Shown here: one piece after another, positions 488 to 64,000 of the stretch
Layout: every line of letters begins with the position of its first letter
Numbering within the stretch: position 1 is the first letter of the stretch
Origin: Alphaproteobacteria bacterium
Lineage (GTDB): Bacteria > Pseudomonadota > Alphaproteobacteria > UBA828
Reading direction: 5' to 3'
NCBI GenBank assembly: GCA_965221125.1
Contig: CBDCRW010000006.1
Coordinates: 64,001-128,000, forward strand
Length of the DNA stretch: 64,000 nucleotides
Made by a program: the position numbers and the translations under genes
Notes under the pieces: generated by a model
Seen by the model: only the letters and a program-made list of their open reading frames with translations
Database searches by the model: none
Told to the model about the DNA's origin: nothing

Positions 488-1480
488 TCAGATGAGGCCG
501 CCGAGGGGGGACGAGGGGTCGGCGTAGCGCTTCTTCGCCATGCGGCCGGCGAGATAGGCGAGCCGGCCGGCCTCGACGGCGTGACGCATGGCGTGCGCCA
601 TCAGCACCGGGTCGCGCGCGCCGGCGATGGCGGTGTTCATCAGCACCCCGTCGCAGCCGAGCTCCATCGCCACCGCCGCGTCCGAGGCCGTGCCGACGCC
701 GGCATCGACGAGCACGGGCACGGCGCAGCGCTCGACGATGATGCGGATGCCGACGGGGTTCTGCACGCCGAGCCCGGAGCCGATGGGCGCAGCCAGCGGC
801 ATGATGGCGGCGCAGCCCATGTCCTCTAGCCGCTTGGCCATGATGGGGTCGTCGTTGCAGTAGACCATCACCTCGAAGCCGTCCGCGATCAGGATTTCGG
901 CCGCGCGCAGAGTCTCCGGCATGTTGGGGTAGAGGGTCTCCTGATCGCCGAGCACCTCGAGCTTGACCAGCGACCAGCCGCCGGCCTCGCGGGCGAGCCG
1001 GAGCGTGCGCACGGCGTCCTCGCCGGTGAAGCAGCCGGCGGTGTTGGGCAGGTAGGTGTAGCGCTTGGGATCGACGTAATCGATCAGCATCGGCGCATTG
1101 GGATCGGTGACGTTCACGCGGCGCACCGCAACCGTGACGATCTCGGCGCCCGAAGCCTCCAGCGCCGCCGCGGTCTGCTCGAAGTCCCGGTACTTGCCGG
1201 TGCCGACGATCAGCCGCGAGCGGAAGCGCCGCCCGGCGACCTCCCACGTGTCGTCGTCGGCAGCCGCCGGCGCAGGGTCGGCGCCGCCGCCGATGAAGTG
1301 CACGATTTCGAGCCGGTCGCCGGCGGCCACAGTGGTGTGGTCGTAGGCGCTGCGCGGCACGATCTCGAGGTTGTGCTCGACGGCGATCTTGCGCGGATCG
1401 AGGCCCAATCCGCTCACGATGCTGTGGACCGACTGGGGCTCCTCGAAGTCGCGGAGCTCGCCGTTTATCTGCACCTGCAT
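488..1480 (-). CDS. thiG: Fused sulfur carrier ThiS / thiazole synthase ThiG
   Basis: ThiS-like N-terminus ending IVHFIGGG, then ThiG motifs [43 protein letters not shown]; start taken at MQVQING. Confidence 0.95.
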
Positions 1481-1657
1481 GGGTGAGGTTCCGTGAAAAA
1501 TCCGCACGCTGCCGCAATGTTGCGGCCTCATCTGGAGTATTGGTGAGTAACATGGCGATTTCAACCGGCCAAGGCGGCGGCGGACACGCGGATTGAAGCC
1601 CGAGTCCCCGCCGTGCTAGACCGGACATGCGGGCGGGCATCACGACCCGGTGCGGTC

Positions 1658-2101
1658 ATGAGTCACAATATCTTGATTCTGAACGGCCCTAACCTCAATA
1701 TGCTGGGGTTGCGGGAACCTGAGATCTACGGTCGCGAGACCCTGGACGACATTCGCGCGCGGTGCGAGCGCCACGCGGAGGGTTGCGGGCTCGCGGTCGA
1801 TTTCAGGCAGAGCAACCATGAGGGCGAGCTGATCGACTGGATTCAGCAGGCGCCGAAGGCGCACGCCGGCATCATCCTCAATCCCGGCGGCTACACCCAC
1901 ACGTCGGTCGCCATCATGGACGCGCTGCGCGCCGTGGCGCTGCCTGCCATCGAGCTGCACCTCTCGAACATCCACCGGCGCGAGCCCTTCCGCCGGCGCT
2001 CCTATGTCGCGCAAGCCGTGCAGGGCTCGATCTGCGGCTTCGGCGCCGACGGCTACCTGCTCGCGCTCGACGGGATGCGCGCGCTCTTGACGGAGGACTG
2101 A
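1658..2101 (+). CDS. aroQ: Type II 3-dehydroquinate dehydratase
   Basis: [48 protein letters not shown] motifs. Confidence 0.97.
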
Positions 2102-2105
2102 CGCG

Positions 2106-2606
2106 ATGGCGGTGAAGCCTGTGCCGGATGCCCGGCCGGAAGACCCGGAGCCCGTGTTCGGACCCGATATCGAGTTGATCCGCGCGCTTGCCGCGGTGCT
2201 CGACGAGGCAGGTCTTACCGAGATCGAGATCGGCGAGGGCGCGAACCGCATCCGCATCGCGCGCCAGACGGCGGTGGGCGCAGCGCCCCCGCCTGCGGCT
2301 GCCGCGCCCCCGGTGGCGGCCGTGCCCGTGGCGCAGGCGGAGCCCCCTGCGCCGCCGGATGCGGACGACGACCCCGGCGCCGTGACCTCCCCGCTCGTCG
2401 GCGTCGTCTACGTGGCGCCGGAGCCCGGCGGGCGCCCCTTCGTCCTGGTGGGCGACGAGATCAACGAGGGCGATACGCTCTTCATCGTCGAGGCGATGAA
2501 GACGATGAACCCCGTCCGCGCCCCGCGCGGCGGCCGTGTCACGCGGATTCTCGCCGAGAACGGTGCCAGGGTCGAGTACGGCGAGGTCCTGCTGATCCTC
2601 GAGTGA
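2106..2606 (+). CDS. accB: Acetyl-CoA carboxylase biotin carboxyl carrier protein
   Basis: Ala/Pro linker and EAMKTMN biotinylation motif; lies between aroQ and accC. Confidence 0.95.
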   Translation: MAVKPVPDARPEDPEPVFGPDIELIRALAAVLDEAGLTEIEIGEGANRIRIARQTAVGAAPPPAAAAPPVAAVPVAQAEPPAPPDADDDPGAVTSPLVGVVYVAPEPGGRPFVLVGDEINEGDTLFIVEAMKTMNPVRAPRGGRVTRILAENGARVEYGEVLLILE

Positions 2607-2611
2607 GGCCG

Positions 2612-3970
2612 ATGTTCGACAAGGTCCTGATCGCCAACCGGGGGGAGATCGCGGTCCGGATCATTCGCGCCTGCCGGGAGTTCGGCATCAAGACGGTCGC
2701 CGTTCATTCCACGGCCGACGCGGAGGCGATGCACGCGAGGCTCGCGGACGAATCGGTCTGCATCGGCCCGCCTGCGCCCCGGGAGAGCTACCTCAACATC
2801 CCGGCCATCATCGCCGCCGGCGAGATCACCAACGCCGACGCGATCCACCCCGGATACGGCTTCCTCTCCGAGAGCGCCGACTTCGCGACCATCGTGGAAG
2901 AGCACGGCTTCATCTTCATCGGCCCGACGCCGTCGCACATCACGCTGATGGGCGACAAGATCCGCGCCAAGCAGACTGCGGCCGAGCTCGGCCTGCCGGT
3001 TGTGCCGGGCTCCGCGGACGCGCTGGAGGGGGCCGACGCCTTCGCCGAGGCCGCCGACGAGATCGGCTATCCGGTGCTCATCAAGGCGGTGGCCGGCGGC
3101 GGCGGGCGCGGCATGATGCGGGTCGACCGCCGCGAGGAGCTGGCCGTGGCGGCCGGCACGGCGCGCGCCGAGGCCGAGGCGGCTTTCGGCAACGACGCGC
3201 TCTATCTGGAGAAGCTGGTCGCGGCGCCGCGCCATATCGAGGTGCAGGTGCTGGCGGACCAGTTCGGCAACGCGGTGCATCTGGGCGAGCGCGACTGCTC
3301 GCTCCAGCGCCGCCACCAGAAGGTGCTGGAGGAAGCGCCCTCGCCGGCGCTCGACGCCGAGCGGCGGGCGGAAATCGGCGAGCGCGTCCGCACCGCCGTC
3401 CGCGAGCTCGGCTATCGCGGGGTCGGCACGCTGGAATTCCTCTACGAGGACGGCGCCTTCTACTTCATGGAGATGAACACGCGCATCCAGGTGGAGCATC
3501 CCGTCACCGAGATGATCACCGGGGTCGACCTCGTTCAGGAGCAGCTCCGCGTCGCCGCCGGCGAGCCCTTGGCCTTCGGCCAGGCGGACATCCGCTTCGA
3601 GGGCCACGCCATCGAATGCCGCATCACGGCGGAGGACCCCGAGACCTTTCACCCCTCGCCCGGCACCGTCAGCGGCTACCACACGCCGGGCGGGCCTGGC
3701 GTGCGCATCGATTCCGCGCTCTACGACGGCTACCGGATCCCGCCCTACTACGACAGCCTCATCAGCAAGGTGATCGCGCAGGCGGGCGACCGCTCGGCCT
3801 GCCTGATGCGGCTCCGACGGGCGCTGGAGGAATACGTCATCCAGGGCATCTCGACCACGATCCCGCTGCACCTGCGGCTGCTCGCCAGCAAGGCGTTCGC
3901 GGACAGCGCCTACGACATCCACTGGTTCGAGCGCTTCGTGACGGAGACCAGCGCAGACCCCGGCACCTGA
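2612..3970 (+). CDS. accC: Biotin carboxylase
   Basis: [49 protein letters not shown]. Confidence 0.97.
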
Positions 3971-3980
3971 CGAAGACGGC

Positions 3981-4652
3981 ATGACCACGGTCGAGCTCAC
4001 GCCCGCGCTGATTCTCAGGGCGTACGGCTGCGGTCTCTTTCCCATGGCCGAGGGCAAGGCGGAGCGGGACGTCTTCTGGGTCGACCCCGAGACGCGGGGC
4101 GTCATCCCGCTGGACCGCTTTCACGTGGCCCGGCGGCTTGCGCGCACGGTCCGCGCCGGGCGCTTCCGCGTCACCGTGGACCGCGACTTTCCCCGCGTCG
4201 TGAGGGGCTGCGCGCGGCGCACCGGGCGCAGGCCGGAATCCTGGATCAACGGGCCCATCTTCGAGGCGTACTGCGCGCTGCACCGGCAGGGGCACGCCCA
4301 CAGCGTGGAGGCCTGGTGCGACGATGCGCTGGCGGGCGGCCTCTACGGCGTGGCGCTGGGCGCGGCGTTCTTCGGCGAGAGCATGTTCAGCGCCGAGCGC
4401 GACGCCAGCAAGGTGACGCTGGTGCACCTGGTCGCGCGCCTGAGAGCGGGCGGCTACACCCTGCTGGATACCCAGTTCGTCACCCCGCACCTGCGCCGCT
4501 TCGGCGCGGTCGAGATGCCGCGGGCGCGCTACCTCTCGCAGCTCGCGGACGCGCTCTCCCGGCAGGCGACCTTCTACCCGGCGGGCTTCTCCGACGCGAC
4601 GGTATCGTCTGCCGGCGCGGCGGCGGCGCAGGCCAGCACCCAGATGTCGTAG
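3981..4652 (+). CDS. aat: Leucyl/phenylalanyl-tRNA--protein transferase
   Basis: [43 protein letters not shown]. Confidence 0.95.
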
Positions 4653-4996
4653 ACCGGGTGCTCCAGCGCCGCGAGGCCCGGCGTCGACGAGAACATCCAG
4701 CCGGTATAGAGGCGCACCGCGCTCTCGTCGTGGTGAACCTCGTCGATCTCGAGGAAGGCCGCGTTCTCCGGCGGCTCCTCCGGCGGCGCGGCATGACAGG
4801 CGCGGACGACGATACGGAGGGTGCCGAAGCGGACCGGCTGGTCGAGCGGCGCCTCCAGCTCGGAGGTGCGCGCCACCACTTTGTCGAGCGCCTGGAGCAC
4901 GGCAACAGGACGCTCGGCCGCGCCGGCGCCTGAGCCGCCGGCGAGCGCCGCGCCGAGCGCTGCGCCCGCGGCCAGCAGTACGAAACCGGGCCTCAC
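4574..4996 (-). CDS. DUF2155 family exported protein
   Basis: Signal peptide; [43 protein letters not shown]; usual neighbour of aat and mlaD. Confidence 0.85.
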
Positions 4997-5437
4997 CTAC
5001 TCGGTGCCGAACGCGAACTTGCCGATCAGCTCCTCGAGCAGGAGCGAGGATTGTGTATACGCGATGCGGCCGCCGTCCTCGATGAGCGCCTCCTCGGCGC
5101 CGGGCTGAAGGTCGATGAACTTGCCGCCGAGCAGGCCGTCGCTCACCACCGCCGCGGTGGAATCCATCGGCAGCTCGACCGTTTCGTCGATGCTCATGCG
5201 CAGCACGGCGCGGAAGGTCTCGGGCTCAAGGGTGCGCTCGATCACCGTGCCGACCTTGATGCCGCCGATGCGGACGTCGGAGCCATTGGAGATGCCGTCC
5301 ACGCGGTTGAACGCCGCGCTCACCTCGTAGCCGCTGGCCGTGGCGACGCCGCTCTTGTTGTAGGCGAAAACCAGGAAGCCGATGGCCACCGCCAGCACCA
5401 CCGCACCCAGCAGGGTCTCGACCAGGCTTCTCGACAT
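4997..5437 (-). CDS. mlaD: MCE-domain lipid asymmetry maintenance protein MlaD
   Basis: N-terminal TM (ETLLGAVVL), MCE motif GSDVRIGGIKVG, SDGLLGGKFIDLQPG. Confidence 0.9.
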   Translation of the reverse strand: MSRSLVETLLGAVVLAVAIGFLVFAYNKSGVATASGYEVSAAFNRVDGISNGSDVRIGGIKVGTVIERTLEPETFRAVLRMSIDETVELPMDSTAAVVSDGLLGGKFIDLQPGAEEALIEDGGRIAYTQSSLLLEELIGKFAFGTE

Positions 5438-5580
5438 GGCGACCTCCTTCCCTGCCACTGGCGTGACGACTGCGGCCCCGTCCGGCCGAGGCAGGGCCGC
5501 GCCGAGTCGCAGTTTGCCATAGCGTACCCGGTCTCGGGTACGGGCTGGGGCGTTTCCGTTATAGACGAAAACGCCCCAGC

Positions 5581-5691
5581 CATTTGTCGCTCACGGCGGC
5601 CGGCTTTCAGCCGGCGCCTGCGCGGGCGCGCCGCATTCGCGGCGGGCCGCGGTCGCGGCCTGTCGCGCGTCCGTCGGGGACGGACGCGCTC
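5581..5691. repeat. GC-rich multi-hairpin interspersed repeat, copy 1
   Basis: Aligns to 17714-17815 (catttRtcgctcacggc...gcgcgccgcattcgcggcgggccgcggtcgcggcctg...gcgcgtccgtc...cggacgcgctc); five consecutive short inverted repeats. Confidence 0.8.
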
Positions 5692-5715: not shown

Positions 5716-8289
5716 CTAAGCGCCGGCGGACAGGTCGATGCCTCGCGCGGCGACGAAGTCGCGGTAGGGCGCGAACGCCTCGTCCACCGCGTCTGGCGTG
5801 AGGCCGTAATCCTCCAGGCTGTACTCGTGGCGCGGTTCCTGCCGGCGCTGCTCGGCCTGGAGGGCGAGCCAGTCCTCCATGGCGTCGGCAGTATCCGTGC
5901 CAAGCGGCCAGCCGAGGCGGGCGTAGATGGCCCTCACGACGGCCATCGGGTTATCGACCAGATCGGCATAGCGCACGTCGACCCAGCGCTCTTCCAGCGC
6001 GGGATTCGAGGCACGGAATTGCGTGGCGTCGTTGAGCATGCCGCTCATGAACGCCAACTGCTCGGCGCCGGTCTCGTGCGGCGGTCTCGGCTCCGTGGCG
6101 AAGCCGCGAAGCCGCTCCGCCAGGCTGTTCCAGGACGCCATGAACTGCACAGGCTCGCGGTGGGTCTGGATGAAGACCGCGTCGGGATAGGCCTCAAGCA
6201 GCGCCTCCAGTTCCTTGAGGTGGAAGGGTGCCTTGAGCAGCCAGTGCCGTTGCCCTTCCGGCTCTCGCTGCCGGTGCTGCCAGGTAAAGTTCTGCATGAC
6301 GCGCCGGTGATGCGCATAGACCTCGCGGGATCCGGCTGTGGCCAGCCAGCGGCCATACCCTGGCACGTGATGCGCGATGGTGAAGGCCCAGGTCCTGAAG
6401 GCGAGCCAAAGGAGCATGAAGTCCTCCTCCGGCTCGCTCATGTCAACGCGGTGAAGCCCGGCGAGCGCGTCGACGGCCCCGGTCGCGTTCAACACCTCTT
6501 CCGCGTAGACCCGGCGGGGATCCTCTGCCGTCCAGGCGACGGTGCCGTATTCGCCGGTGGACAGCACCGGCTCAGTCAACTCGTACCGGCGCAATGCCCA
6601 GAACTGAGGATCACGTGACAGGAGGCGATGCAGAAATGTCGTGCCGGTCCGATTGATGCCGGCGACGAAAACCGGGCGCTCGATCTCTTCTCGCTCGATT
6701 TCGGGGTGCTGCTGGCGCTCCCTCGCAAGCGTGGCGTTGTTGCGCAGCGCGCGGGTCAGCCCGTAGATAACATGACTGATCGCCTTCTCCCGCAGCCCGG
6801 CCTCGGGCGATTTCAGCGCCTCGATCAGTTGCTTGAGCCCCTCCAGCTTCCATGCGGGATAGGCCTCTTCGAAGGGGACACCCATGCGCCGGGCGTACGT
6901 CTCGGCCTGAGCGACCAGACCTTCGAAGTCCAGGCGGGCCTGCGGGACGGAGTGGGGCCATTTCTCCTCGTTTCGTCTGAGCCAGTCGTATGAGCGGGCG
7001 TGGCGGACCAGCAATGCCGGCCACTTGATCGGGCGCGGGCAGTCCTCCCGAATGGCACGATCGCTGATCGGCAACGTTTGGCGGATCTTGTCCTCGCTGA
7101 ACCAGTAGGGCGCGAAATGGTCGAACAGCACCCACTGCCCGTGCAGCGGAGACTCCTCGCCGACCGTCTGGCACGAACGCCTGAAGGACTGATACGAGAC
7201 TTCCTGCCAATAGAACCCGAACTCCGCCAATTCGAGATCCTCATGCGGCGGCTCTGGGTCACAACAGTGATAGACGGTGAAACGCCGATCAGGGTTCAGG
7301 GAGATCGCCGCACATATTTCGATAACCGTGTCCACCGGCTCGGACTGCCTTTGTGTAGTAAAGCCTCGCGGCACCTTCTCCAGTTGAGTGGCCGCAGCAA
7401 ACAGCCGGGTCGGGAAGTCGTTCGCGTGCGTATACCCTGTGCTGGGTAACCCCATCAGCGGCAGGCGAAAGATTGCGGTCGGCACGCCGGCCGACCTCGC
7501 GGACAGCACGCCTTGCTCGGCCACCAGCTTGCTCCACGGATAGCCGACGACGCCGAGCGGAAAGATATTCTTCATTTCAGTGACGTCGGGCGACATTTGA
7601 TCGTCGATGCGGCTCTGACTGTACTCCCGCGCAAAGTTGCAGAAATACGCAGGAAATATGCCCATGCTGGAGACGTAAAACAGGTGCTTGATTCGAGTCC
7701 GCAAACACAGCTCGAGCAGGGGACGAACGCCGAGCACGTTCGCCTCGCGTATGTCATCGTAGGGCACGACCAGGCCCACGTCGGCGGCGACGTGATAGAC
7801 CGCATCGATCTGCCGGGAGAAACCCTCGAACGCGACATCGCTCAGGCCGAAGCGTTCCTCGGTGACGTCGCCGGGCACCACCCGCAGGCGCGGCGCAAAC
7901 GCGTCCTCCCAGATTTCCGCCTGCTCCAGGGCATCGCGCAGCCGCTGGAAGCCGTGTTCGACGCTCTCGGCGCGGATCAGGCAGTGAACAATCAGGCGGT
8001 CGTTCTGCCGCAGAAGCTCGCGCAGGAGGAAACGCCCGACGAAGCCGGTCGCGCCCGTCAGCAGGACCTCTCGAAAGTCGTCTGGCGACACGGCCTCGGC
8101 CGGCGTCTCGCGCGAGCGCGCCGCATGAACGACGCGGCGCAACTCGTCCACGTCTTTCTGGCAGTGCGGCGGCAACCGGCCGATGAGCGGCGGCACCGCC
8201 CGGTCAGAGGCGGATGGTGCGGCCATCGTGTCGGCCCGGGATATTGCATATGCCATGGCGGAGTCCGTTCTCCTGCAGCCGGATTGCAC
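5716..8289 (-). CDS. swfB: Thioester reductase (R) - sulfotransferase (ST) fusion, SwfB-type; start uncertain (8289 GTG, 8256 or 8226 ATG)
   Basis: R domain: VLLTGATGFVG, YHVAA, GYPWSK (YxxxK); ST domain: VFVAGINRTGTTFLHRLL (PAPS loop), WLLKAPFHL, IQTHREP, HEYSLEDYGL; abuts the PKS stop codon. Confidence 0.85.
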   Translation of the reverse strand: MQSGCRRTDSAMAYAISRADTMAAPSASDRAVPPLIGRLPPHCQKDVDELRRVVHAARSRETPAEAVSPDDFREVLLTGATGFVGRFLLRELLRQNDRLIVHCLIRAESVEHGFQRLRDALEQAEIWEDAFAPRLRVVPGDVTEERFGLSDVAFEGFSRQIDAVYHVAADVGLVVPYDDIREANVLGVRPLLELCLRTRIKHLFYVSSMGIFPAYFCNFAREYSQSRIDDQMSPDVTEMKNIFPLGVVGYPWSKLVAEQGVLSARSAGVPTAIFRLPLMGLPSTGYTHANDFPTRLFAAATQLEKVPRGFTTQRQSEPVDTVIEICAAISLNPDRRFTVYHCCDPEPPHEDLELAEFGFYWQEVSYQSFRRSCQTVGEESPLHGQWVLFDHFAPYWFSEDKIRQTLPISDRAIREDCPRPIKWPALLVRHARSYDWLRRNEEKWPHSVPQARLDFEGLVAQAETYARRMGVPFEEAYPAWKLEGLKQLIEALKSPEAGLREKAISHVIYGLTRALRNNATLARERQQHPEIEREEIERPVFVAGINRTGTTFLHRLLSRDPQFWALRRYELTEPVLSTGEYGTVAWTAEDPRRVYAEEVLNATGAVDALAGLHRVDMSEPEEDFMLLWLAFRTWAFTIAHHVPGYGRWLATAGSREVYAHHRRVMQNFTWQHRQREPEGQRHWLLKAPFHLKELEALLEAYPDAVFIQTHREPVQFMASWNSLAERLRGFATEPRPPHETGAEQLAFMSGMLNDATQFRASNPALEERWVDVRYADLVDNPMAVVRAIYARLGWPLGTDTADAMEDWLALQAEQRRQEPRHEYSLEDYGLTPDAVDEAFAPYRDFVAARGIDLSAGA

Positions 8290-11200
8290 TACTCGGCCGC
8301 CATGGCCTTGGCGGCGCTATTTCCGGAGCACGGCGCCGGCGGGAAGTGATCCTCAGGCGGGCTCGCGAACACCGAGGGCTTGCGGCGAACGCGGCGCGCG
8401 GCGGCGAGGGGCGCATCCAGGGTCCCGCCGTCTTCGTCGTCGGCGTCCGTCCCGTCGTCCGTCTCCGTTCCATGGACGATGGCATGCGCCAGCGACTGGC
8501 ACGAGGCCGTGGTCATCAGCTCCAGCGCGCTCGCCTGGAAGCCGAACTCGCTCTGAATGAACGCCCCCAGCTCGGCGACGGAGATGGAGTTGAGCCCGAA
8601 GCTGGAGAGGGGCTCTTCCAGGCCGCCCTCGTCGTGGCCGCAGAGCTCGGCGACCTTGGCGGCGATCTGCGCCATCACACCATCGACCGTCAGCCGCTCG
8701 TCGGTGCCGACCGCGAACGCGTCCTGGTTGCTCATCAGGCGGCCGGTGCGCATGTGGTCGGCGGAGTCCACGCTCCAGAGGAGGCGCTTGAAGAGCGCGG
8801 TGATCAGGTGGTCGCTCCCGCCCATCGTGCGCAAGGCGTAGTCGAGGTTGGCGACCGCGAAATAGCTGCTGACCGGCGGCATGCCTGCGGCCTTCATCAG
8901 GCGGAGCACGCCGAGGTTGCGCGCGGCCATGCCCGCGTCCGCAACCGCCGCCAGGTTGTAGGAGAGCGCCGGCAGGCCGTCGCGGCGGCGGCAGGCGGCG
9001 AGGCCGTCGAGATAGGCGTTGGCGGCGCTGTAGTTGATCTGCCCCGGATTGCCGAAGGTGGACGACGTGGACGACACCATGACGAAGTGATCGAGGGCGA
9101 GGCCGGCGGTGGCGCGGTGGAGATTGAGCGCGCCCCTGGCCTTGGGCGCGAACACGCGGGCGACGGAGTCCGCCGAGAGGTCAGCCAGCAGGCAGTCGTC
9201 CAGCGCGCCGGCGAGGTGGAACACGCCCTTGAGCGGCCGCTTCACGTCGGCGACGCAGCGGCGCACGTCCGCCTCTAACGCGACGTCGCCCTGGACCAGA
9301 TCGATCTCGATCCCCTTCCCGATGTCCGCAAGCGTCGTGGACCGGCGCAGCCAGGTCTCGCTGCGCCGGCGCTCGGGGTCGCGGTCCATCAGGGTGAGGT
9401 GGCGGGCGCCGGCGGTCGCCAGGTATGGCAGGAGCCGCTGGCCGAAGCCGCCCAGACCGCCGGTCACGAGATAGGTGGCATCCGGGTCCAGCAGCGGCCG
9501 CCGGTCGTCGATGGGGAAGTCGGGAGCGGCCCCCGCCGGCGGCGCCTGCAGCACCAGCTTGCCCTGGTGCTGGCCCGAGGTCATGAGGCGGAGCGCCTTC
9601 GCATAGTCGCCGTAGGGGAAGACGGTGACCGGCAGCGGCGGCACCACGCCGCGATCGAGCAGGTCGAGGCAGGCCTGGGAAAGCTCGCGCGACAGGAGCG
9701 GATCGTCCACCATCAGGCGGTCGAGGTCGATGGCGGCGAAGCGCAGGTTCTTGCGGAAGACACGGAGGCCGAGGGCGCTGTCGGCGTAGATGTCGACCTT
9801 GCCGATCTCGCAGTGCCAGCCGCCCGGCCGCAAGGCTTCCAGGCAGAGGGACACGTGGCGGCCGGCCAGCGAGTTCAGCACGACGTCGACGCCCTGGCCG
9901 CCGGTTGCCGCCATCAGCCCCTCGTACCAGTCCTCGCTGTGGGAATCGAAGGCCGCCCGCACGCCGAGCGCGCGCAGCTGCTCGCGCTTGCTCTCGCTGC
10001 CCGCGGTGGCGTAGACCTCCGCGCCCACGTCGCCTGCGAGCGCGATGGCGGCCTGCCCGATGCCGCCCATGGCCGAGTGGATGAGGACGCGCTGGCCCTT
10101 GCGAAGCCGCGCCAGGTGAATGAGGGCGTAGTAGGAGGTGACGTAGACCGAGAGCGACGACGCGGCTTCCTCCATGCTGAGGCCGGCGGGCTTCGGGAAC
10201 ACGCGGTGCTGGCCCACCACCGCGCGGTTGGCGATGCAGCCGCCGTCCACGAAGACCACCTCGTCGCCGGGCTCCAGGCCGTCGACCGCCATGCCGGCGC
10301 GGCGGACCACGCCGCTCGCCTCCATGCCCACCTCGCGGCCGAGGGCCGAGCGCTCGTAGGCCAGCGCCGGCAGCAGGCCGAGCGTCACCATGACATCGCG
10401 GAAGTTGAGCGCCGCTGCGGCCACGTCGATCTCCACGTGGTGCGGGCCGAGCGGCGGCGGCTCGCAGGTCTTCATCTGCAGGCCGGCGATCTGGCCTGCG
10501 TTCTCCAGGAAGAGCCGATAGGGCGGGTCTTCCCCGGCAGGCACGGGCGGGAACGGCGCCCGGTCGCTCAGCACCCGCGGCGCCCAGAGCCGGCCGTCGC
10601 GCACGCCAAGCTCGCGCTCGCGCAGGTCGTGCCGCGCGAGCCACGCGAGGGTCTTCAGGTCATCGGCCGAGCCCAGGTCCACGAGGCGGAAGTCGAGCTT
10701 CGCCTCCTCGGCGACCTCCGCCGCCATGCTGCGCACCGCTCCCCAGAGCGCGCTGCCGCGCGCATCCTCGGCATCCAGGACTGCCTTGCGGGTCGCCACA
10801 GTGACGCGGCAGCGGCAACTGGCTTCGTCGATCCTGTAGGGGACCAGCGACTGGATGAAGGCGACGAAGAGCGAGACCGCCTTCTCGCCGGTCGGATCCT
10901 CCGCATCCCGGTCGAAGAAGACGTCGATCGCGTGCACGTCCGCCGCATGCGGGCAGGCCTCAGGATCGAGGCGGTCGTCGGACGCGAGGGCCTCGTAGGG
11001 GAGCGGATGGACAGAAGGATCGTCGAGCAGGTCTGCCCAGGCGGTGGCCAAGCTCTGCGGCTCGCCCAGCACCCAGCGGGGGCCCGGCAGCACCGCGTCG
11101 TCCGGCGCGTCCACGCGGTGGGGCGGCGCCTGCAGCAGGGTCGAGCGCCGGCCGGTGCGCAGCGTGGTCCAGCCGGCGGCGGGCTCGATGACGGTGCCGT

Positions 11201-14200
11201 CTTCGTGGGAGACCAGCGCCAGCGCGCCGGGGACCGCCACCGCCTGCCAGAAGTTCCACGCCTCGGGCGTGAACGCCCCTTCGTCGTGCAGGAACAGGAT
11301 TTCCGCCGCGTGCCGGCGCAGCAGGCCGTCCTCCAGCGCGGAGGGCTCGCGCGCGGCGGGATCGAGGCAGTCGAAGCGGAGCGCGGCGTCGTGCCCGTGG
11401 AAGGCGTCGAAGTGCGCACGCGCGCCCGCCTCGTCGTCGCCGACGAGCCAGAACGCGCTCTGCACCTCCTCCCGCGAGAGATGGTCGATGCAGCGGTGAA
11501 GCACGGTCTGTTCCGGCTCCCGGCCACCGGCGAACTCCACGGCGTGGCGGGCGCGCACGTCGTCGCACCCGTCCGCCTGCTCGAGCGCGGCGAGCAGGGC
11601 GGCCGGCTCGACCTCGCCGTCGGGCAACGCGTCCACGATCGCGCGGCCGTCGGCCACGAACTTCGGCTGCCAGGCGATGCGGTGCTTGGTGTACGGCAGG
11701 TCGACCCGTCGCGGGTTCGAGATGAAGGAGATGTACTTCTCGATGTGAAGGATGAGGTCTCCGGTCTCACCGTCGTAGCAACTCAAGCTGCCGGAAACCC
11801 ACTCCCCCGTCGGCACCGTGTATTGGCCCTTGTCGTCGACCTCGTACCGAATGCCGTCGGGATAGGTCACGCGGCACGTCATTCGCGGCACCGTGGGTGG
11901 GCGCAAGAAGGTCACGTTCTCGGCCCGACGCGGAATGGCAAAAAGATCGGCTCCGAGCATCAGGTCATAGAGATACGACTGCAATCCGCCGTCGAGCAGA
12001 GCCGGGAACAGGGTGTAGCCCTCTTCCTGGCCCGCTTGCCACAGGGCTTCGTCCACCTCGACATCGAAGAGCAGGAAATCGGTGGCGATCTCACGCCGCA
12101 GCCGACGCATGTTGCGGAAGTGGGGACCGTACTGGAAGGTTTCACCGAGAACCGTCTCGAAGCGTTCGTAGAGCTCGTCGTCCGACGCATAGGGCAGGGG
12201 CTCGTAGCGGGACTCGTCGATCTCCCTCACGTGTTCGGGCACGTCCGGCATGTGCTCAGGCCCGATGCGGCGCGCCCGGCCGCGGCAGTGCAGCTCGCAC
12301 TTCGCGTCGATGTCGTAGGGCTGGGTCGAGATGGTGACGGTGAATTCGCCGGGCGAGTTCGACACCGGCTGCAGGGCCGTCTGCAGCCGCAGCGGCGTCC
12401 TCGGAACAGGGCAGGGCTGGAGGAATTCCAGCATCTCGATGTGGACGGGTGCACCCTCCAGGGCCTGCAGAACAAGTTCGACAAAACCCGCGGCCGGCAT
12501 GATCGGCGCGTGGTGGACGCGATGCTCCGCCAGCCACGGAAACGCTCTTTCCGACAGCCGCGCTTCGAACAGGAGATGGTCGCTCGGGACGCGGTGGCCG
12601 ACCAGGGGCCCGTGCGCGTACTCGCTCTGCTGCAGGAAGAACTCGTCGTCCAGCGCCCTGTCGACGCTCTTCTGCTCGTCGCGCGGGTGCCCCGGCAGCA
12701 GAGGGACGATGGGGTCCGGCCTGGGATACTGGGCCGCGAAATCCAGCGATACGCCGGCCCTGAAGAGGGCGCCGAGCGCCTCGTGAAAGGCGAGGCGCGT
12801 ATCGGCGTCCCGCATGAGGGTCGGGACGGAGACGGGCGGCGATGCGGCGTCTTCCACGCATTGCGCGATGAGGGGCTGGAGCGCCGAGTGGGGTGCGAGC
12901 TCCAGCACCACGCCGGGCCGGTGCTCGCGCTTGACGGCCTCCATCGCTGCGGCAAAGCGGACCGGCTGGCGGATGTTCGACCACCAGTAGGCGCTGTCCA
13001 ACCGCTCCGTCTCGGTGCCCATCACCGACGAGACGAAGGGCACGTCCGCGTCGAAGGCGCGGCCGTCGAGGAAGGCGAGCGCGGCGAAGACATCGGCCTC
13101 GATAGCGTCCATCGCCCGGGAGTGGAAGGCGATGTTGCCCGGGATCAGGCGGTTCTGGAGGTTGCGGCGATCCAGCGCCGCCATCACCGTCCGCAGGTCG
13201 TCCTCCCGGCCGCAGATGACCGTGTTGGCCGGCGCGTTCTCGCAGGCGATCTCCACCCGGACGGGCCGGCCGCCGCCCTGGCGGAAGGGAACGTCCAGGC
13301 CGTCGAGCAGCTCCTCCACGCCCGGCCGGTCGAGGCCGATCGCCAGCATGCGGCCTGACCCCGCCACGCGCTGCTGCAGGGTGGCGCGATGGAAGACCAG
13401 GCGCGTCGCATCGGCGAGCGAGAGCGCGCCGCACGCGTACGCCGCGGCGACCTCGCCGGAGCTGTGGCCCACCACGCAGTCGGGATGGACGCCCCAGGTC
13501 TTGAACAGCTCCACCAGCGCGCACTGGATCATGAAGATGGCGGGCTGGGCGAGCTGAACCTCGTCGAGCTCGTCCTGGGGAGCCGAGAAGCAGGCCGCGC
13601 GCAGGGAGGTCTCCGCGTGTTCCCGCCAGTGCTCGTCGATGGCGTCGATGGCGCGGCGGAACACGGGATGCGCCTCGTAGAGCGCTTGGCCGCAGCCAGC
13701 CCACTGCGTGCCCTGCCCGGCGAAGACCATGGCCAGCCGGCGCTCACCCTCCTCCGCGCTGGCGATGGGAGCCTCTGCCTCTGCGAAGGCATCCAGCGCC
13801 TCGGTGAGCTCGGGCACGCTCCGCGCCACGAACGACGTGCGCGCGGCGAAATGGGTGCGGCGGCGGCTGAGATTGCCGGCGAGCGCGTAGAGGTCCACCG
13901 GCTCCTCGTCGAGCAGCCGGCGCAGGCGCCCCGCGCTCTCGACCAGCGCCTTCGGCGTGCGTGCCGAGAGCGGGATCATGTAGCCCGCCTCCGGCGCGAG
14001 CGGCAGCGACCAGAGCCGGGGCCGCGCCGGGCGGTACTCGCGCACCACGCAGTGGCCATTGGCGCCGCCGAAGCCGAAGGAGTTGATGCCGACGACGACG
14101 GGATGGTCGGGGAAGGGCTCACATTCCGTCTGCACCTCCATGGGGCCGCGCGCGAAGTCGATCTCCGGATTGGGCACCTGGAAGCTCTTCGACGTGGGCG

Positions 14201-15350
14201 CGAAGGTGCGCCGCTGCATCATCAGGATCACCTTGAGCAGGGCGCAGTGGAACGCGGCGGCCTCCATGTGCCCGACGTTGCTCTTGACGCTGGAGACCCT
14301 GAGGGGGACGTCGCGCCCGGACTCGCCGAACGCCTCGGCGATGGCGTTGCCCTCGATGCGGTCGCCGACCTCGGTTCCGGTGGCGTGGGCCTCGATGTAG
14401 TCGAACTCCCCCGGCGTCCGCGCGGCGCGGGCCGCGGCCTCGCGCATCAGCTCGATCTGGGCGTGGCGGGTGGGCGCGCTGATGAAGCGCCCCGGCGCGA
14501 GGCCGGCGGAGCCGTCGGCGGCGCCAGCCGCGTTCACCGCCGTCGCCTCGATCACGGCGTAGATCGGGTCGCCGTCGCGCTCCGCCGCCGCCAGCGGCTT
14601 GACGGCGAAGACGAACGCGCCCTCGGAGCGCATGTAGCCGTTGGCTGCGGCATCGAAGGAATGGCAGACGCCGTCCGGGCTGATGATGCCCATGAGGTTG
14701 AAACCGCTGCTCATCCGGGCGCTGCCGAGATAGGTGACGGCGCCGACGAGCGCCTGGTCGCAGTCGCCGCTGCCGAGCGCGTTCATCGCCGCGTGCAGCG
14801 CGGTCACGCCGGCGGAGCAGGCGGTGCAGTAGGTCGCCGACGAGCCCATGAGGTTGAAGTGGTAGGATACCCGGTTGGCCAGCATGGCCAAGCTGATGCC
14901 GCCGACGGAATACTCCGTGACGCCATGCTGCGGCCGCCAGTTGGAGACGGCGGGAACCTGGGAGCCGATGAAGACGCCGGTGGCGCTGTTGCGCAGGGAG
15001 TGGAGGTCCCAGCCGACATGCTCGATGGCCTCCCACGCGCAGTTCAGCAGCATCCTGACCTGCGGCTCGGTCTGCCGCAGTTCGTTATGGGACATGCCGA
15101 AGAAGGTGCGGTCGAAGAGCAATTCGTCTTCGTCGCGGATGAGCCCCTCATAAGGGCTTGCGAGGCGACCGGGGCCCGAAAACTTGCCTATGGGCAGATG
15201 GCCTCGTCCATAACGAACGCTTATCGGCTCCTGGACGATATCGCGCTCGCTGAGCAGGCGCCAGAACTCCGCATCCGAACGGATGCCGCCGGGCATGCGG
15301 TAGCCGTACCCGGTGATCGCAACCCCGCCGCTGATGTCACGAGCGTCCAT
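8289..15350 (-). CDS. swfA: Monomodular fully reducing type I PKS/FAS (KS-AT-DH-pseudoMT-ER-KR-ACP), SwfA-type
   Basis: KS CTACSAG / EAHATGT / KSNVGHME; AT GHSSGE and IAFHS; DH HRVHHAPIMP and LLDGGLQ; ER LIHSAMGGIG; KR TGGLGGFG, LDD, YSAAN; ACP FGLNSISV; no TE domain. Confidence 0.9.
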   Translation of the reverse strand: MDARDISGGVAITGYGYRMPGGIRSDAEFWRLLSERDIVQEPISVRYGRGHLPIGKFSGPGRLASPYEGLIRDEDELLFDRTFFGMSHNELRQTEPQVRMLLNCAWEAIEHVGWDLHSLRNSATGVFIGSQVPAVSNWRPQHGVTEYSVGGISLAMLANRVSYHFNLMGSSATYCTACSAGVTALHAAMNALGSGDCDQALVGAVTYLGSARMSSGFNLMGIISPDGVCHSFDAAANGYMRSEGAFVFAVKPLAAAERDGDPIYAVIEATAVNAAGAADGSAGLAPGRFISAPTRHAQIELMREAAARAARTPGEFDYIEAHATGTEVGDRIEGNAIAEAFGESGRDVPLRVSSVKSNVGHMEAAAFHCALLKVILMMQRRTFAPTSKSFQVPNPEIDFARGPMEVQTECEPFPDHPVVVGINSFGFGGANGHCVVREYRPARPRLWSLPLAPEAGYMIPLSARTPKALVESAGRLRRLLDEEPVDLYALAGNLSRRRTHFAARTSFVARSVPELTEALDAFAEAEAPIASAEEGERRLAMVFAGQGTQWAGCGQALYEAHPVFRRAIDAIDEHWREHAETSLRAACFSAPQDELDEVQLAQPAIFMIQCALVELFKTWGVHPDCVVGHSSGEVAAAYACGALSLADATRLVFHRATLQQRVAGSGRMLAIGLDRPGVEELLDGLDVPFRQGGGRPVRVEIACENAPANTVICGREDDLRTVMAALDRRNLQNRLIPGNIAFHSRAMDAIEADVFAALAFLDGRAFDADVPFVSSVMGTETERLDSAYWWSNIRQPVRFAAAMEAVKREHRPGVVLELAPHSALQPLIAQCVEDAASPPVSVPTLMRDADTRLAFHEALGALFRAGVSLDFAAQYPRPDPIVPLLPGHPRDEQKSVDRALDDEFFLQQSEYAHGPLVGHRVPSDHLLFEARLSERAFPWLAEHRVHHAPIMPAAGFVELVLQALEGAPVHIEMLEFLQPCPVPRTPLRLQTALQPVSNSPGEFTVTISTQPYDIDAKCELHCRGRARRIGPEHMPDVPEHVREIDESRYEPLPYASDDELYERFETVLGETFQYGPHFRNMRRLRREIATDFLLFDVEVDEALWQAGQEEGYTLFPALLDGGLQSYLYDLMLGADLFAIPRRAENVTFLRPPTVPRMTCRVTYPDGIRYEVDDKGQYTVPTGEWVSGSLSCYDGETGDLILHIEKYISFISNPRRVDLPYTKHRIAWQPKFVADGRAIVDALPDGEVEPAALLAALEQADGCDDVRARHAVEFAGGREPEQTVLHRCIDHLSREEVQSAFWLVGDDEAGARAHFDAFHGHDAALRFDCLDPAAREPSALEDGLLRRHAAEILFLHDEGAFTPEAWNFWQAVAVPGALALVSHEDGTVIEPAAGWTTLRTGRRSTLLQAPPHRVDAPDDAVLPGPRWVLGEPQSLATAWADLLDDPSVHPLPYEALASDDRLDPEACPHAADVHAIDVFFDRDAEDPTGEKAVSLFVAFIQSLVPYRIDEASCRCRVTVATRKAVLDAEDARGSALWGAVRSMAAEVAEEAKLDFRLVDLGSADDLKTLAWLARHDLRERELGVRDGRLWAPRVLSDRAPFPPVPAGEDPPYRLFLENAGQIAGLQMKTCEPPPLGPHHVEIDVAAAALNFRDVMVTLGLLPALAYERSALGREVGMEASGVVRRAGMAVDGLEPGDEVVFVDGGCIANRAVVGQHRVFPKPAGLSMEEAASSLSVYVTSYYALIHLARLRKGQRVLIHSAMGGIGQAAIALAGDVGAEVYATAGSESKREQLRALGVRAAFDSHSEDWYEGLMAATGGQGVDVVLNSLAGRHVSLCLEALRPGGWHCEIGKVDIYADSALGLRVFRKNLRFAAIDLDRLMVDDPLLSRELSQACLDLLDRGVVPPLPVTVFPYGDYAKALRLMTSGQHQGKLVLQAPPAGAAPDFPIDDRRPLLDPDATYLVTGGLGGFGQRLLPYLATAGARHLTLMDRDPERRRSETWLRRSTTLADIGKGIEIDLVQGDVALEADVRRCVADVKRPLKGVFHLAGALDDCLLADLSADSVARVFAPKARGALNLHRATAGLALDHFVMVSSTSSTFGNPGQINYSAANAYLDGLAACRRRDGLPALSYNLAAVADAGMAARNLGVLRLMKAAGMPPVSSYFAVANLDYALRTMGGSDHLITALFKRLLWSVDSADHMRTGRLMSNQDAFAVGTDERLTVDGVMAQIAAKVAELCGHDEGGLEEPLSSFGLNSISVAELGAFIQSEFGFQASALELMTTASCQSLAHAIVHGTETDDGTDADDEDGGTLDAPLAAARRVRRKPSVFASPPEDHFPPAPCSGNSAAKAMAAE

Positions 15351-15602
15351 GCAAAAGAACCCCGGCGAAAGGTGTCATTGACTCCGCATCAGAGACTTCC
15401 GGAACGCAAGCCGGCGATATCAGGTATCCAAGCAATCGTGCCGCGTTCCAAGCCTGTTCGATTGCCCTTCCTCCCCTTGATCGACACGTTATGTCCATAT
15501 CGTATAGTCCGCAGCCGCATCACCTCCAATAGCGATTTCTTAGCCGTTCCATAAGTATCGCTGATTGAGGACAGAAGCAGGATTCGCCCGCGCCAGCCGC
15601 CA

Positions 15603-16010
15603 TCAGCCTACGATCTCGCCGTCGACCATGGCGATCGCCTCGATCTCGATTTCGAGCTCGGGCAGCGCGAGGCCCGTGATCTCGACGATGGTGTCGGCCG
15701 GGTAGGGCGGCGTGAAATACTTCTCGCGGAGCGCCACGATCTTGCCGAAGTTGCCCATGTCCTTCAGGTAGATGTTCACCTTGACGATCTTGGCCAGGCT
15801 GGAGCCGCCGGCCTCCAGCACCGCCGCCAGGTTCTTGAAGGTCTGTTCGGCCTGCGCGTCGAAGTTGCCGACGCCGACGATGGTGCCGTCGAGGTCGATG
15901 GCGGTCTGGCCGGAGACGAAGATCAAATCGCCCACGCGGTAGGCCTGCGCCAGCTTGAAGGGCTCGTAGGGATCGGGGTCGGTCTTGATGCGAACGGCGT
16001 TATCGGCCAT
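15603..16010 (-). CDS. RidA/YjgF family enamine/imine deaminase
   Basis: LIFVSGQ, IVKVNIYL, PYPADTIVEITGLALPELEIEIEAIA. Confidence 0.88.
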   Translation of the reverse strand: MADNAVRIKTDPDPYEPFKLAQAYRVGDLIFVSGQTAIDLDGTIVGVGNFDAQAEQTFKNLAAVLEAGGSSLAKIVKVNIYLKDMGNFGKIVALREKYFTPPYPADTIVEITGLALPELEIEIEAIAMVDGEIVG

Positions 16011-16130
16011 CGGTCTTCTCCCTCTCGGTCGCTGCGAAGCGGGGGTGCGAAACGGCATCCTCGCCGACCGCGCCGCCAGATGCTAGGACGCGCCGAGCCG
16101 CGACGGCGGCGCCAACAGGAGACCGACGAC

Positions 16131-16928
16131 ATGAGCGACACTGTGCTGATCGAGCGAGACGGCGGCATCGCCCGGGTGACCCTCAACCGGCCCGACGTGC
16201 TGAACGCGCTCGACGACGAGCTCTGCGATGCCCTGGTCGGCACGCTGGCCGGCGTGGAGCGCGATCCCGAGGTGCGCGTGATGGTGCTGCAGGGCGCCGG
16301 CGGCTACTTCATGGCGGGCGGCGACCTGCGCTCCTTCCACGCGCTGATCGAACGTGCGCCGGACGAGCGCCGGCGGCACTTCGAGACGATGATCGACCGG
16401 GTTCACGCGATCATCCGCATCATGCGGCGCATGCCGCAGCCGATCGTCGCCAGGATCGACGGCGCCGCCGGCGGCTTCGGGCTGAGCCTGGTTCTCGCCT
16501 GCGACCTCGCCGTCGCCGCGACCGACGCCATCTTCACCATGGCCTACTGCCGCATCGGCACCAGCCCCGACGGCTCTTCCACCTGGTTCCTGCCGCGCAC
16601 GGTGGGCGCCAAGAAGGCGATGGAGCTGGCGCTGCTCGGCGACCGCTTCGGCGCGCGCGAGGCGGAACGGCTCGGCATCGTGAACCGCGTCGTCTCCCCG
16701 CACAGGCTGGAGGAAGAGACGGACGCGCTCGCCCGCCGCCTCGCCGCCGGGCCTGCCCTGGCCTACGCCAACACCAAGCGGCTGCTCCAGGCCTCGCCCC
16801 ATGCGTCGCTCGAGGAACAGCTGCAGGCGGAAGGCGAGCGCTTCGCCGACTGCGCGGCGAGCGCGGATTTCGCCGAGGGTGTGCGCGCCTTCGTCGAGAA
16901 GCGCCGGCCCAGCTTCACCGGGCGCTGA
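16131..16928 (+). CDS. Enoyl-CoA hydratase/isomerase family protein (PaaG-like)
   Basis: TLNRPDVLNAL, FMAGGDL, AAGGFGLSLVLACD, DFAEGVRAFVEKRRPSFTG. Confidence 0.9.
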   Translation: MSDTVLIERDGGIARVTLNRPDVLNALDDELCDALVGTLAGVERDPEVRVMVLQGAGGYFMAGGDLRSFHALIERAPDERRRHFETMIDRVHAIIRIMRRMPQPIVARIDGAAGGFGLSLVLACDLAVAATDAIFTMAYCRIGTSPDGSSTWFLPRTVGAKKAMELALLGDRFGAREAERLGIVNRVVSPHRLEEETDALARRLAAGPALAYANTKRLLQASPHASLEEQLQAEGERFADCAASADFAEGVRAFVEKRRPSFTGR

Positions 16929-16931
16929 GCC

Positions 16932-17672
16932 ATGGGCGGCAGGCTCGCCGGCAAGACCGCGCTGATCACGGCGGCAGGGCAAGGGATCGGCCACGCGACC
17001 GCCGTGGCGTTCCAGAAGGAAGGGGCGCGGGTCTGGGCGACGGATATCGACGAGGCCAAACTCGCCGGCCTCGCCACGCTGGAGCGCGTCACCTGCCGGG
17101 CGCTCGACGTGCGCGACAGCGATGCCGTCGCCGCGCTGGCGGACGAGACCGGCGCGCTCGACGTGCTCTTCAACTGCGCGGGCCGGGTGCCCCACGGCGC
17201 GATCCTCGACTGCGCGGCGCAAGACTGGGCGGAGGCGCTCGACCTCAACGTGACCGCGATGTACCGGACGATCCGCGCCTTCCTGCCGGCGATGCTGGCG
17301 CAGGGCTCAGGCTCGATCATCAACATGGCGTCGGTGGTCTCGACGCTGAAGGCCGCGCCGGAGCGCTGCGCCTACCACGCCAGCAAGGCCGCGGTCTTGG
17401 GGCTCACCACGTCGGTCGCGTTCGACTACGCAGGCCGCGGCATCCGCTGCAACGCGGTCTGCCCCGGCGCGATCGATACCCCCTCCTTCGACGAGCGGAT
17501 GGATGCCCACGCCGAGCCCGAGGCCGCGCGCAGGGCCTTCATCGCGCGCCATCCGATCGGGCGGATCGGATCGCCGTCCGAGGTGGCGGCGCTCTGCGTC
17601 TATCTGGGGTCGGACGAATCCGCCTTCACCACCGGCCAGGCGCTGGTGATCGACGGCGCCTGGAGCCTGTGA
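16932..17672 (+). CDS. Short-chain dehydrogenase/reductase (BDH2/UcpA-like)
   Basis: TAAGQGIG, LFNCAG, YHASKAA, NAVCPGAIDTP, TGQALVIDG. Confidence 0.9.
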   Translation: MGGRLAGKTALITAAGQGIGHATAVAFQKEGARVWATDIDEAKLAGLATLERVTCRALDVRDSDAVAALADETGALDVLFNCAGRVPHGAILDCAAQDWAEALDLNVTAMYRTIRAFLPAMLAQGSGSIINMASVVSTLKAAPERCAYHASKAAVLGLTTSVAFDYAGRGIRCNAVCPGAIDTPSFDERMDAHAEPEAARRAFIARHPIGRIGSPSEVAALCVYLGSDESAFTTGQALVIDGAWSL

Positions 17673-32853: not shown

Positions 32854-32886
32854 CGCGCCCGCAATGCGGTCATGGGAGGGCAGCCG

Positions 32887-34962: not shown

Positions 34963-34977
34963 AGGGAGACCGGGACC

Positions 34978-40515: not shown

Positions 40516-40551
40516 CGAAGCCCGGCGCCCGCGCTGCAAAGAGGTGACACG

Positions 40552-41919: not shown

Positions 41920-41949
41920 GGAGTTTCCGTGTAAAGCGGAAATGCTCTA
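41918..41949. repeat. REP-like palindrome related to 17680-17710
   Basis: agggagtttccg-N7-cggaaatgctcta at the stop of the serine hydrolase gene. Confidence 0.5.
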
Positions 41950-63999: not shown

Positions 64000-64000
64000 A

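Follow-up and report, generated by a model that had tools for sequence, protein, structure and literature searches.

A 64,000-nucleotide stretch of alphaproteobacterial DNA (hereafter the window; GTDB lineage Bacteria; Pseudomonadota; Alphaproteobacteria; UBA828; GenBank assembly GCA_965221125.1, contig CBDCRW010000006.1, positions 64,001 to 128,000 of the forward strand) carries two adjoining genes that are swfA and swfB of the swf family, as placed by published signatures, protein sizes and domain order rather than by direct alignment to the published clones. The first encodes a monomodular type I polyketide or fatty acid synthase (PKS/FAS), the second a fusion of a thioester reductase (R) and a sulfotransferase (ST). 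We consider it probable that this minimal swfAB cluster makes a long-chain primary alkyl sulfate, through iterative chain synthesis, reductive release and sulfation from 3'-phosphoadenosine 5'-phosphosulfate (PAPS). Genes 96-98% identical to the pair are already public.

The swf family ('sponge symbiont widespread FAS') was defined by Della Sala et al. in 2013 (PMC3908369; GenBank JX946307, JX946308). As that paper describes it, SwfA is one KS-AT-DH-ER-KR-ACP module (2349 and 2361 aa) in which the ketosynthase (KS) has I or V for the second Q of DPQQR and HATGT for HGTGT, and the acyltransferase (AT) combines IAFH with an unusual GHSSGE and the signature QCALVEL, the last of these serving with FSGQGTQW as a primer site. 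The adjoining swfB encodes an N-terminal R and a C-terminal ST domain in 832-839 aa (PMC3908369). The window SwfA, with the same domain order in 2353 aa, carries all five signatures (EPQVR, HATGT, GHSSGE, IAFH and QCALVEL), and its FAGQGTQW (543) differs from the primer motif by a single change. Next to it lies an R-ST gene of matching size, at 836-857 aa depending on the start chosen, and an earlier note on this DNA was thus right to identify the two genes as swfA and swfB. The signatures recur across relatives. Among 51 full-length open reading frames (ORFs) that resemble SwfA, the window's included, HATGT, GHSSGE and IAFHS are present in all (51/51 each), QCALVEL in 38 and [DE]PQ[IV]R in 34, while in the remainder the motif has an H, L or M variant or was not recognized; DPQQR and HGTGT occur in none (0/51).

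A further gene, swfC, encoding a B12-radical-SAM protein and putative methylase, is described for two of the three published clusters and as missing from the third, clone pPSA11D7, whose neighbouring ORFs had best hits in Sphingomonas and Erythrobacter (PMC3908369). A search with SwfC (tblastn) found no orthologue in the 64-kb window. Because pPSA11D7 is likewise without swfC, its absence is no bar to membership of the family, and it is this two-gene type that the window represents. The window does encode a B12-binding radical SAM protein (42464-44080, + strand), 27 kb from the swf genes, which we rejected as swfC: it is only 27-31% identical to 41 SwfC sequences that share at least 59.5% with one another. 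It is a paralogue rather than an orthologue of SwfC, and scores far below the cut-offs of its best NCBIfam models, HpnJ and 'lipid biosynthesis B12/rSAM'.

SwfA is a complete module. The ORF, the order of Pfam matches and the positions of the motifs agree with the intact KS-AT-DH-ER-KR-ACP architecture without a thioesterase (TE) that had been read from the sequence earlier, and every catalytic motif sought in SwfA and SwfB is present, including the KS active-site motif TACSAG (176). The Pfam matches have the domain limits listed in Table 1, except that the KS match spans residues 10-387, and a Pfam scan of both proteins found no TE domain. The best NCBIfam model, Pks2_ls1_myc, scores 847 bits, far under its cut-off of 2400, and the generic type I PKS model is likewise below its cut-off. 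The KS-AT region is 73-96% identical to that of the 119 other homologues listed, with scores of 1500-2000 bits within the family; the highest for cis-AT PKSs of solved structure (CurL, mycocerosic acid synthase at 402 bits, and modules of DEBS) are near 400 bits. The IAFH of the AT is taken as a sign of malonyl-CoA specificity, and in the 2013 study Svp converted a SwfA ACP to its holo-form (PMC3908369).

In SwfB, Pfam recognizes NAD_binding_4 ('male sterility') at residues 77-324 (E 2e-53) and Sulfotransfer_3 at 539-795 (E 1e-36), and the R domain scores 213.4 bits on NCBIfam TIGR01746, barely past the cut-off of 213.35. Among solved structures, the R domain is most closely related to MxaA (4u7w; E 8e-42, motifs aligned), whose R domain yields an alcohol, to a PKS thioreductase of Streptomyces coelicolor (8v1x) and to the R domain of a nonribosomal peptide synthetase (NRPS) of M. 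tuberculosis (4dqv). The Rossmann motif and the Ser, Tyr and Lys residues align to MxaA and are invariant across 24 homologues. The ST domain is closest to STF1 (2zq5, E 3e-37) and STF9 (2z6v, E 3e-27): GINRTGTT (544-551) and THREP...S (709-719) align to STF1, and residues G544, R547, G549, T550, T551, T709, H710, R711 and S719 are invariant among the 24 homologues of alignment A1. An AlphaFold2 model, built from a 24-sequence alignment and used solely for the fold match of this domain, gave Foldseek TM-scores (normalized to the target) of 0.84 for STF1 and 0.81 for STF9, compared with 0.50-0.51 for the ST domains of CurM (4gbm) and an olefin synthase (OLS; 4gox); retinol dehydratase and the strigolactone enzyme LGS1 are also among the distant matches. 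The CurM and OLS domains gave no match in the sequence search of the PDB at E <= 0.01.

The two genes were previously described as joined by a TAGTG overlap. The string is indeed present (TAG 8291-8289, GTG 8289-8287), but the GTG is doubtful as the start of swfB. Homologues are mostly 831-836 aa long and the consensus of 24 of them begins at the position of M22 (ATG 8226); P0003, which is 98% identical to SwfB, has the length predicted for a start at M12 (ATG 8256). On this comparison swfB more likely begins at ATG 8226 or ATG 8256, 63 or 33 nt past the swfA stop, than at the overlapping GTG. Whichever start is used, the distance between the genes is at most 62 nt, and their reading as an operon is unaffected.

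How might these two proteins work together? In the pathway that we favour, SwfA, with its ACP phosphopantetheinylated, would run its malonyl-type AT and full KR/DH/ER loop through repeated cycles, and the acyl-ACP that results would be largely saturated. The R domain of SwfB would then release the chain by reducing the thioester with NAD(P)H to the aldehyde and on to a primary fatty alcohol, and the Stf-type ST would sulfate this alcohol from PAPS, so that a long-chain primary alkyl sulfate results. Such an anionic amphiphile would probably be placed in, or exported across, the cell envelope. Without swfC, any modification that SwfC introduces would be missing from the product of this cluster.

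This scheme of iterative extension, reduction and sulfation was already the hypothesis of the 2013 paper (PMC3908369), and the earlier note arrived at it as well. It is favoured here by three features of relatives: R-ST fusions, cysNC genes and exporters. Gene and domain content, motifs, family membership, synteny and these associations are shown by the sequences; we infer that the module is used iteratively, how long the chain is, that four electrons reduce it, what accepts the sulfate and where in the cell the product goes. In the fusions (P0124, P0128 and P0136), one protein of about 2930-3180 aa contains KS-AT-DH-ER-KR followed by the R-ST pair. Because the same R-ST pair is there part of the synthase itself, we infer from these sequences that it acts on the SwfA product. 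Reduction as far as the alcohol is plausible by analogy, because the nearest solved R domains include the M. tuberculosis NRPS domain, described as carrying out a two-step, four-electron reduction to the alcohol; TgTR, the reductase of T. gondii TgPKS2, is likewise reported in a preprint to form an alcohol.

Gene neighbourhoods were compared across related loci drawn from a survey of one genome for each of 185,579 GTDB species. A SwfB relative is encoded in stretches from 286 species, and counts refer to the best 80 of these, with presence determined by tblastn and families identified by Pfam matches of representatives. Directly upstream of swfB or of swfC-swfB, and on the same strand, lies swfA in 72 of the 80; the other 8 end at contig ends. 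The swfC gene occurs in 43 of the 80 loci, in 33 of the 56 in which swfA is full and the flank measures 2 kb or more, and in 9 of the 26 alphaproteobacterial loci among those 56: the form without swfC predominates in Alphaproteobacteria. Four Acidobacteriota-type loci (L039, L041, L044 and L048) have a tandem swfC pair between swfA and swfB. A fused cysNC gene, for a sulfate adenylyltransferase subunit and adenylyl sulfate (APS) kinase, is present in 9 of the 80 loci, mostly right after swfB, where it fits a demand for PAPS. An AcrB-type resistance-nodulation-division (RND) pump gene is found in 17, ten of them with an HlyD-type membrane fusion protein partner, and lies upstream of the swf genes, downstream of them or on the opposite strand; a gene for a major facilitator superfamily (MFS) transporter is found in 11. 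Roughly one locus in three has such a transporter gene, as would suit an amphiphilic product that is exported.

Other neighbours are shared by smaller sets of loci. An accessory short-chain dehydrogenase/reductase (SDR), 76-89% identical between loci, occurs in nine loci of different taxa (L003, L005, L010, L014, L015, L016, L032, L043 and L047, with a fragment in L011), often between the RND pump gene and swfA. None is present in the window, where the SDR gene at 16932-17672 was rejected as a counterpart at merely 29-32% identity. An AMP-binding enzyme gene (family 23) occurs in four loci. The 92-aa ORF and the STAS-domain gene that precede swfA in clone PS11G3 (PMC3908369) are present in 28 and 19 of the 80 loci, respectively, and neither is in the window. 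There is no independent PKS in the 80 loci, only three KS fragments: two near swfC (L005 14549-14950 and L013 6959-7471) and one upstream of a truncated swfA of which about 45% is left (L054 6734-7483). They look like what is left of swfA copies that were rearranged or have decayed.

Several observations weigh against the alkyl sulfate pathway. The 2013 paper reports that E. coli BAP1 expressing an entire swf cluster yielded no new compound by liquid chromatography coupled to mass spectrometry in positive- or negative-ion mode (PMC3908369), and we found no later report of a swf product in the literature searched. According to the TgTR preprint, two- and four-electron thioester reductases cannot be separated by sequence. 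The 2013 paper also raises the points that a single module might lengthen a pre-made fatty acyl starter once or a few times and no more, and that reducing domains may be skipped in some rounds, which would leave hydroxyls as possible sulfate acceptors (PMC3908369). In the AlphaFold2 model of SwfB, mean pLDDT is 56 and falls below 50 over residues 141-364; the R domain is in effect unmodelled, so its pocket could not be analysed. Finally, the ORFs scanned in the 64-kb window include no PAPS-synthesis gene, phosphopantetheinyl transferase, SwfC orthologue or RND or MFS neighbour, so the associations with PAPS supply and export come from relatives.

Some of these points lead to other readings of the same two genes. 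SwfA might not synthesize its chain de novo, and could instead take a fatty acyl starter out of primary metabolism, add one or a few C2 units and leave release to SwfB, which we regard as possible although rather less than likely. Consistent with this, SwfA begins at the KS and has no loading module, and mycocerosic acid synthase, which extends fatty acyl primers, is among the closest solved relatives of its KS-AT. The 2013 paper allows for either iterative action or one elongation (PMC3908369), and an acyl-activating enzyme might be seen in the AMP-binding gene of four related loci. No such enzyme is conserved beside the cluster across the 80 loci, however, and none adjoins it in the window. 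Since only chain building would differ and the release chemistry would be unchanged, this reading overlaps with the pathway we favour. Unlikely, in our view, is that the R domain stops at the aldehyde, or that the alcohol is not the acceptor, and that the ST sulfates a secondary hydroxyl to give a sulfated hydroxy-aldehyde, a diol sulfate or something similar. Iterative PKSs may use their reducing domains optionally (PMC3908369), the extent of reduction by an R domain is not predictable from sequence (TgTR preprint), and the accessory SDR of nine loci could mean that an extra reduction step is sometimes needed. Counter to this, the window lacks that SDR, its sole SDR being the distant one noted above, and alcohol-forming enzymes are among the nearest solved R domains.

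A still less probable case is that sulfation serves as activation, with the sulfate a leaving group on the way, by elimination or substitution, to a terminal alkene, to an ether or to some other alkylated product, in the manner of CurM and the olefin synthases. The precedent was raised in the 2013 paper (PMC3908369), and the CurM and OLS domains, retinol dehydratase and LGS1 do appear among the distant structural matches. Yet SwfA and SwfB contain neither a TE nor any other eliminating domain, and the CurM and OLS sulfotransferases are much more distant than STF1 and STF9 in fold and have no match in the sequence search at E <= 0.01, which together make the CurM logic less likely; nor do the 80 loci have a conserved neighbour able to use an alkyl sulfate as alkyl donor. 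It is very improbable that the locus arose as a chimera of the assembly or survives only as a decaying remnant without function. A dip in G+C content (0.636 in 6001-8000 against about 0.70 around it) and the KS fragments or split swfA of some related loci could be taken in that sense. Against it, both ORFs are intact with every catalytic motif, the third-codon-position G+C of swfA is 0.91, like that of its neighbours, no convincing direct or inverted repeats flank swfAB, and both junctions recur, at 89-92% identity, in a second metagenome-assembled genome (MAG).

That genome, a Rhodospirillales MAG (locus L001), has 92% nucleotide identity to 1042-5541 of the window and 89% to 15435-17668, with swfA and swfB between the two regions. 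Because an independent MAG reproduces both junctions, the locus is not chimeric, and the concern that the earlier note had raised over the junction of swfB with the MlaD gene is answered. The sharing of both flanks also supports an alphaproteobacterial, Rhodospirillales-like host. One flank of swfAB contains thiS/thiG, aroQ, accB, accC, aat, a DUF2155 gene and a gene for a small MlaD protein; the other has genes for RidA, an enoyl-CoA hydratase, an SDR, an EamA transporter, glycerate kinase and pyruvate kinase (pyk). Annotation of the window ORFs thereby bears out the setting among alphaproteobacterial core genes (accB, accC, aat and MlaD) that had been described for it. The accBC genes do adjoin the cluster, as had also been pointed out in view of malonyl-CoA supply. 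We rejected a conserved or functional link between them, because the flank on the accBC side is matched in only one of the 80 related loci, the near relative L001, and the proximity looks incidental. No tRNA gene lies anywhere in the 64-kb window.

Relatives of the cluster are taxonomically widespread. A search with SwfB (E <= 0.001, 8000 candidates scored) returned 618 relatives, of which the 120 listed all carry R and ST and are 61-98% identical to the window protein. The best 80 loci are all MAG records, some of them named (for example, Candidatus Poriferihabitaceae). Going by record titles, Alphaproteobacteria is the most frequent taxon among them, with 39 loci, followed within Pseudomonadota (47) by 8 from Gammaproteobacteria; 10 loci are from Nitrospirota, 6 each from Acidobacteriota and Latescibacterota, 3 from Rhodothermota and 1 each from Binatota, Gemmatimonadota, Thermodesulfobacteriota and Tectimicrobiota, with 4 unnamed. 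Published accounts name as swf hosts Poribacteria (2013, withdrawn in 2014), then Nitrospirota, Latescibacterota and Acidobacteriota (2022, MAG-based) and 'Thalassonella' (2023). In the literature searched, represented in part by excerpts, we found no published link between swf and Alphaproteobacteria. The earlier view that both product and host lineages are poorly resolved therefore stands for the product, none being reported in the literature found, but not for the hosts, given the 286 species genomes and the MAG hosts published since 2022.

We built a quick maximum-likelihood tree of SwfB with 78 rows, comprising 69 SwfB proteins of 780-960 aa (the window's included), 5 R-ST parts of fusions and 4 divergent stand-alone proteins; L001 and other ORFs outside this length range were left out. 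The window SwfB groups with those of L027, L002, L003 and L005 with full support, within a mainly proteobacterial clade of 35 rows. Mapping taxonomy onto the tree requires 11 label changes for Alphaproteobacteria and 7 for Gammaproteobacteria. This departure from taxonomy is consistent with gene exchange among co-resident bacteria, with the caution that errors in MAG binning call for. One 4.15-Mb MAG chromosome (OY763937.1) has two divergent swf loci (L027 and L033). Their SwfB proteins share 83% and 61% identity with the window's.

Relative to the published swf clusters, the window version is embedded in a long stretch of chromosome that also carries core genes (accBC, aat, thiG, aroQ and pyk). 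Pks2 and mycocerosic acid synthase are, like SwfA, single-module and fully reducing synthases, but they have a methylmalonyl-type AT where that of SwfA is malonyl-type, and their release and sulfation logic differs; in sulfolipid-1 the sulfate is on trehalose. The R domains of MxaA, the M. tuberculosis NRPS and TgPKS2 share with SwfB the SDR-type fold features TGxxGxxG and Ser/Thr-Tyr-Lys. They sit at the C-terminus of a synthase, whereas SwfB is a separate protein with an added sulfotransferase. STF1 and STF9 share the fold and the PAPS-binding motifs of the SwfB ST domain, yet are free-standing proteins of about 380-410 aa with no link to a PKS, and we know of no acceptor for either. CurM and OLS likewise place a PAPS-type ST at the off-loading end of a type I PKS, in the order ACP-ST-TE. 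There the ST sulfates the beta-hydroxyl of the ACP-bound chain and the TE then decarboxylates and eliminates to give the alkene (PMC3908369); in the window, by contrast, there is no TE, R precedes ST, and the ST fold is nearer to STF1 and STF9.

Contiguous R-ST didomains 31-34% identical to full-length SwfB also occur in apicomplexan and chromerid PKSs. An R-ST didomain ends the multimodular PKS of Rhytidocystis (P0139) according to Pfam, and those of Gregarina (P0141) and Chromera (P0163) by alignment position alone. These proteins differ from the swf system in being eukaryotic and multimodular, 4100-6700 aa long, with R-ST in cis. Coccidian examples had already been noted in the 2013 paper (PMC3908369).

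Table 1. Features of the swfAB locus in window coordinates; residue numbers refer to SwfA or SwfB.
Feature	Position	Strand	Description
swfA	8289..15350	-	2353-aa ORF, KS-AT-DH-ER-KR-ACP; monomodular type I PKS/FAS without TE
KS domain, aa 10-440	14031..15323	-	Cys178; EPQVR 95, HATGT 322, NVGH 358
AT domain, aa 542-867	12750..13727	-	FAGQGTQW 543, QCALVEL 609, GHSSGE 628, IAFHS 740
DH domain, aa 915-1161	11868..12608	-	H943...P952, DGGLQ 1120
ER domain, aa 1616-1935	9546..10505	-	MGGIG 1761; Pfam and NCBIfam
KR domain, aa 1958-2137	8940..9479	-	TGGLGGFG 1963, YSAAN 2107
ACP, aa 2228-2291	8478..8669	-	GLNSIS 2252, Asn where Asp usually precedes Ser
swfB	5716..8289	-	Thioester reductase and sulfotransferase fusion; 857 aa from GTG 8289, 846 aa from ATG 8256, 836 aa from ATG 8226
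R domain, aa 75-349	7243..8067	-	TGATGFVG 78, Ser of YVSS 205, YPWSK 250 (Y250, K254); TIGR01746
ST domain, aa 539-795	5905..6675	-	NRTGTT 546 (5'-phosphosulfate loop), KAPFH 686, THREP...S 709 (3'-phosphate motif); PF13469
G+C-rich hairpin	5665..5689		27 nt downstream of the swfB stop; second hairpin at 5543-5581
Conserved non-coding block	15429..15592	-	79-242 nt upstream of the swfA start

The genes are bounded by non-coding elements (Table 1). The hairpins that follow swfB mark the probable end of the swfAB transcript; a T-rich tail sits on the + strand only, so a terminator role towards swfB itself would be conjectural. Upstream of swfA, the block at 15429-15592 is about 70% identical to the corresponding regions of L001, L004, L006, L007 and L008 and holds a near-invariant stretch, CTTATGGAAC...AAGAAATCGnTATTGGAG. 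It is possibly a promoter or operator region that moves with the cluster. We rejected a structured RNA or riboswitch here, given no Rfam match, almost no covariation in the fold of the alignment (-0.23) and a single-sequence fold whose z-score of +1.6 against mononucleotide shuffles shows no extra stability. A 10-codon ORF within the block is conserved, by eye, at all codon positions, and because of this a DNA or RNA sequence signal is more likely than a peptide.

Elsewhere in the window, the radical SAM gene at 42464-44080 is accompanied by genes for an (R)-specific enoyl-CoA hydratase (RipB/Ich-like; 41935-42528) and a beta-lactamase-family protein (40516-41919). Genes of hydantoinase/oxoprolinase type, caprolactamase- or acetophenone-carboxylase-like, form two sets (32854-36777, + strand, and 44212-48108, - strand), one of them a two-gene pair and the other a fused ORF of 1298 aa. 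The ORF at 488-1564 (- strand) matches ThiS over residues 31-94 and ThiG over 109-353, so that either thiS and thiG are fused here or the ORF was called too long. At the far end of the window, 62001-64000 has a G+C content of 0.505 compared with about 0.70 elsewhere and encodes a Phd/YefM-like antitoxin (62291-63004) and an AAA_21 ATPase (62536-63993). This part may be the margin of a defence or mobile island.

Looking across the family, we can tentatively extend the pathway proposed for the window, while holding the extension to be on balance doubtful: swfAB may be a self-sufficient, horizontally exchanged two-gene cassette for alkyl sulfates, whose product is pumped to the envelope, as the RND or MFS neighbours of relatives would allow, and forms a surface trait of symbionts in nine or more named phyla. 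According to the 2013 and 2014 papers, swf is widespread in marine sponges (PMC3908369 for the former). The window offers a minimal two-gene version in a clean chromosomal context, and with it a simple expression construct. Because cysNC, RND and MFS genes adjoin swf in related loci, we suggest that PAPS supply and export may be the reason why the 2013 trial in E. coli failed. If the extended reading is true, swfAB would be the first genetically defined bacterial route to primary long-chain alkyl sulfates, which would be natural detergent-like anionic lipids. Such lipids would then represent a surface trait shared by uncultivated symbionts, with a role, for example, in host recognition or in avoiding digestion.

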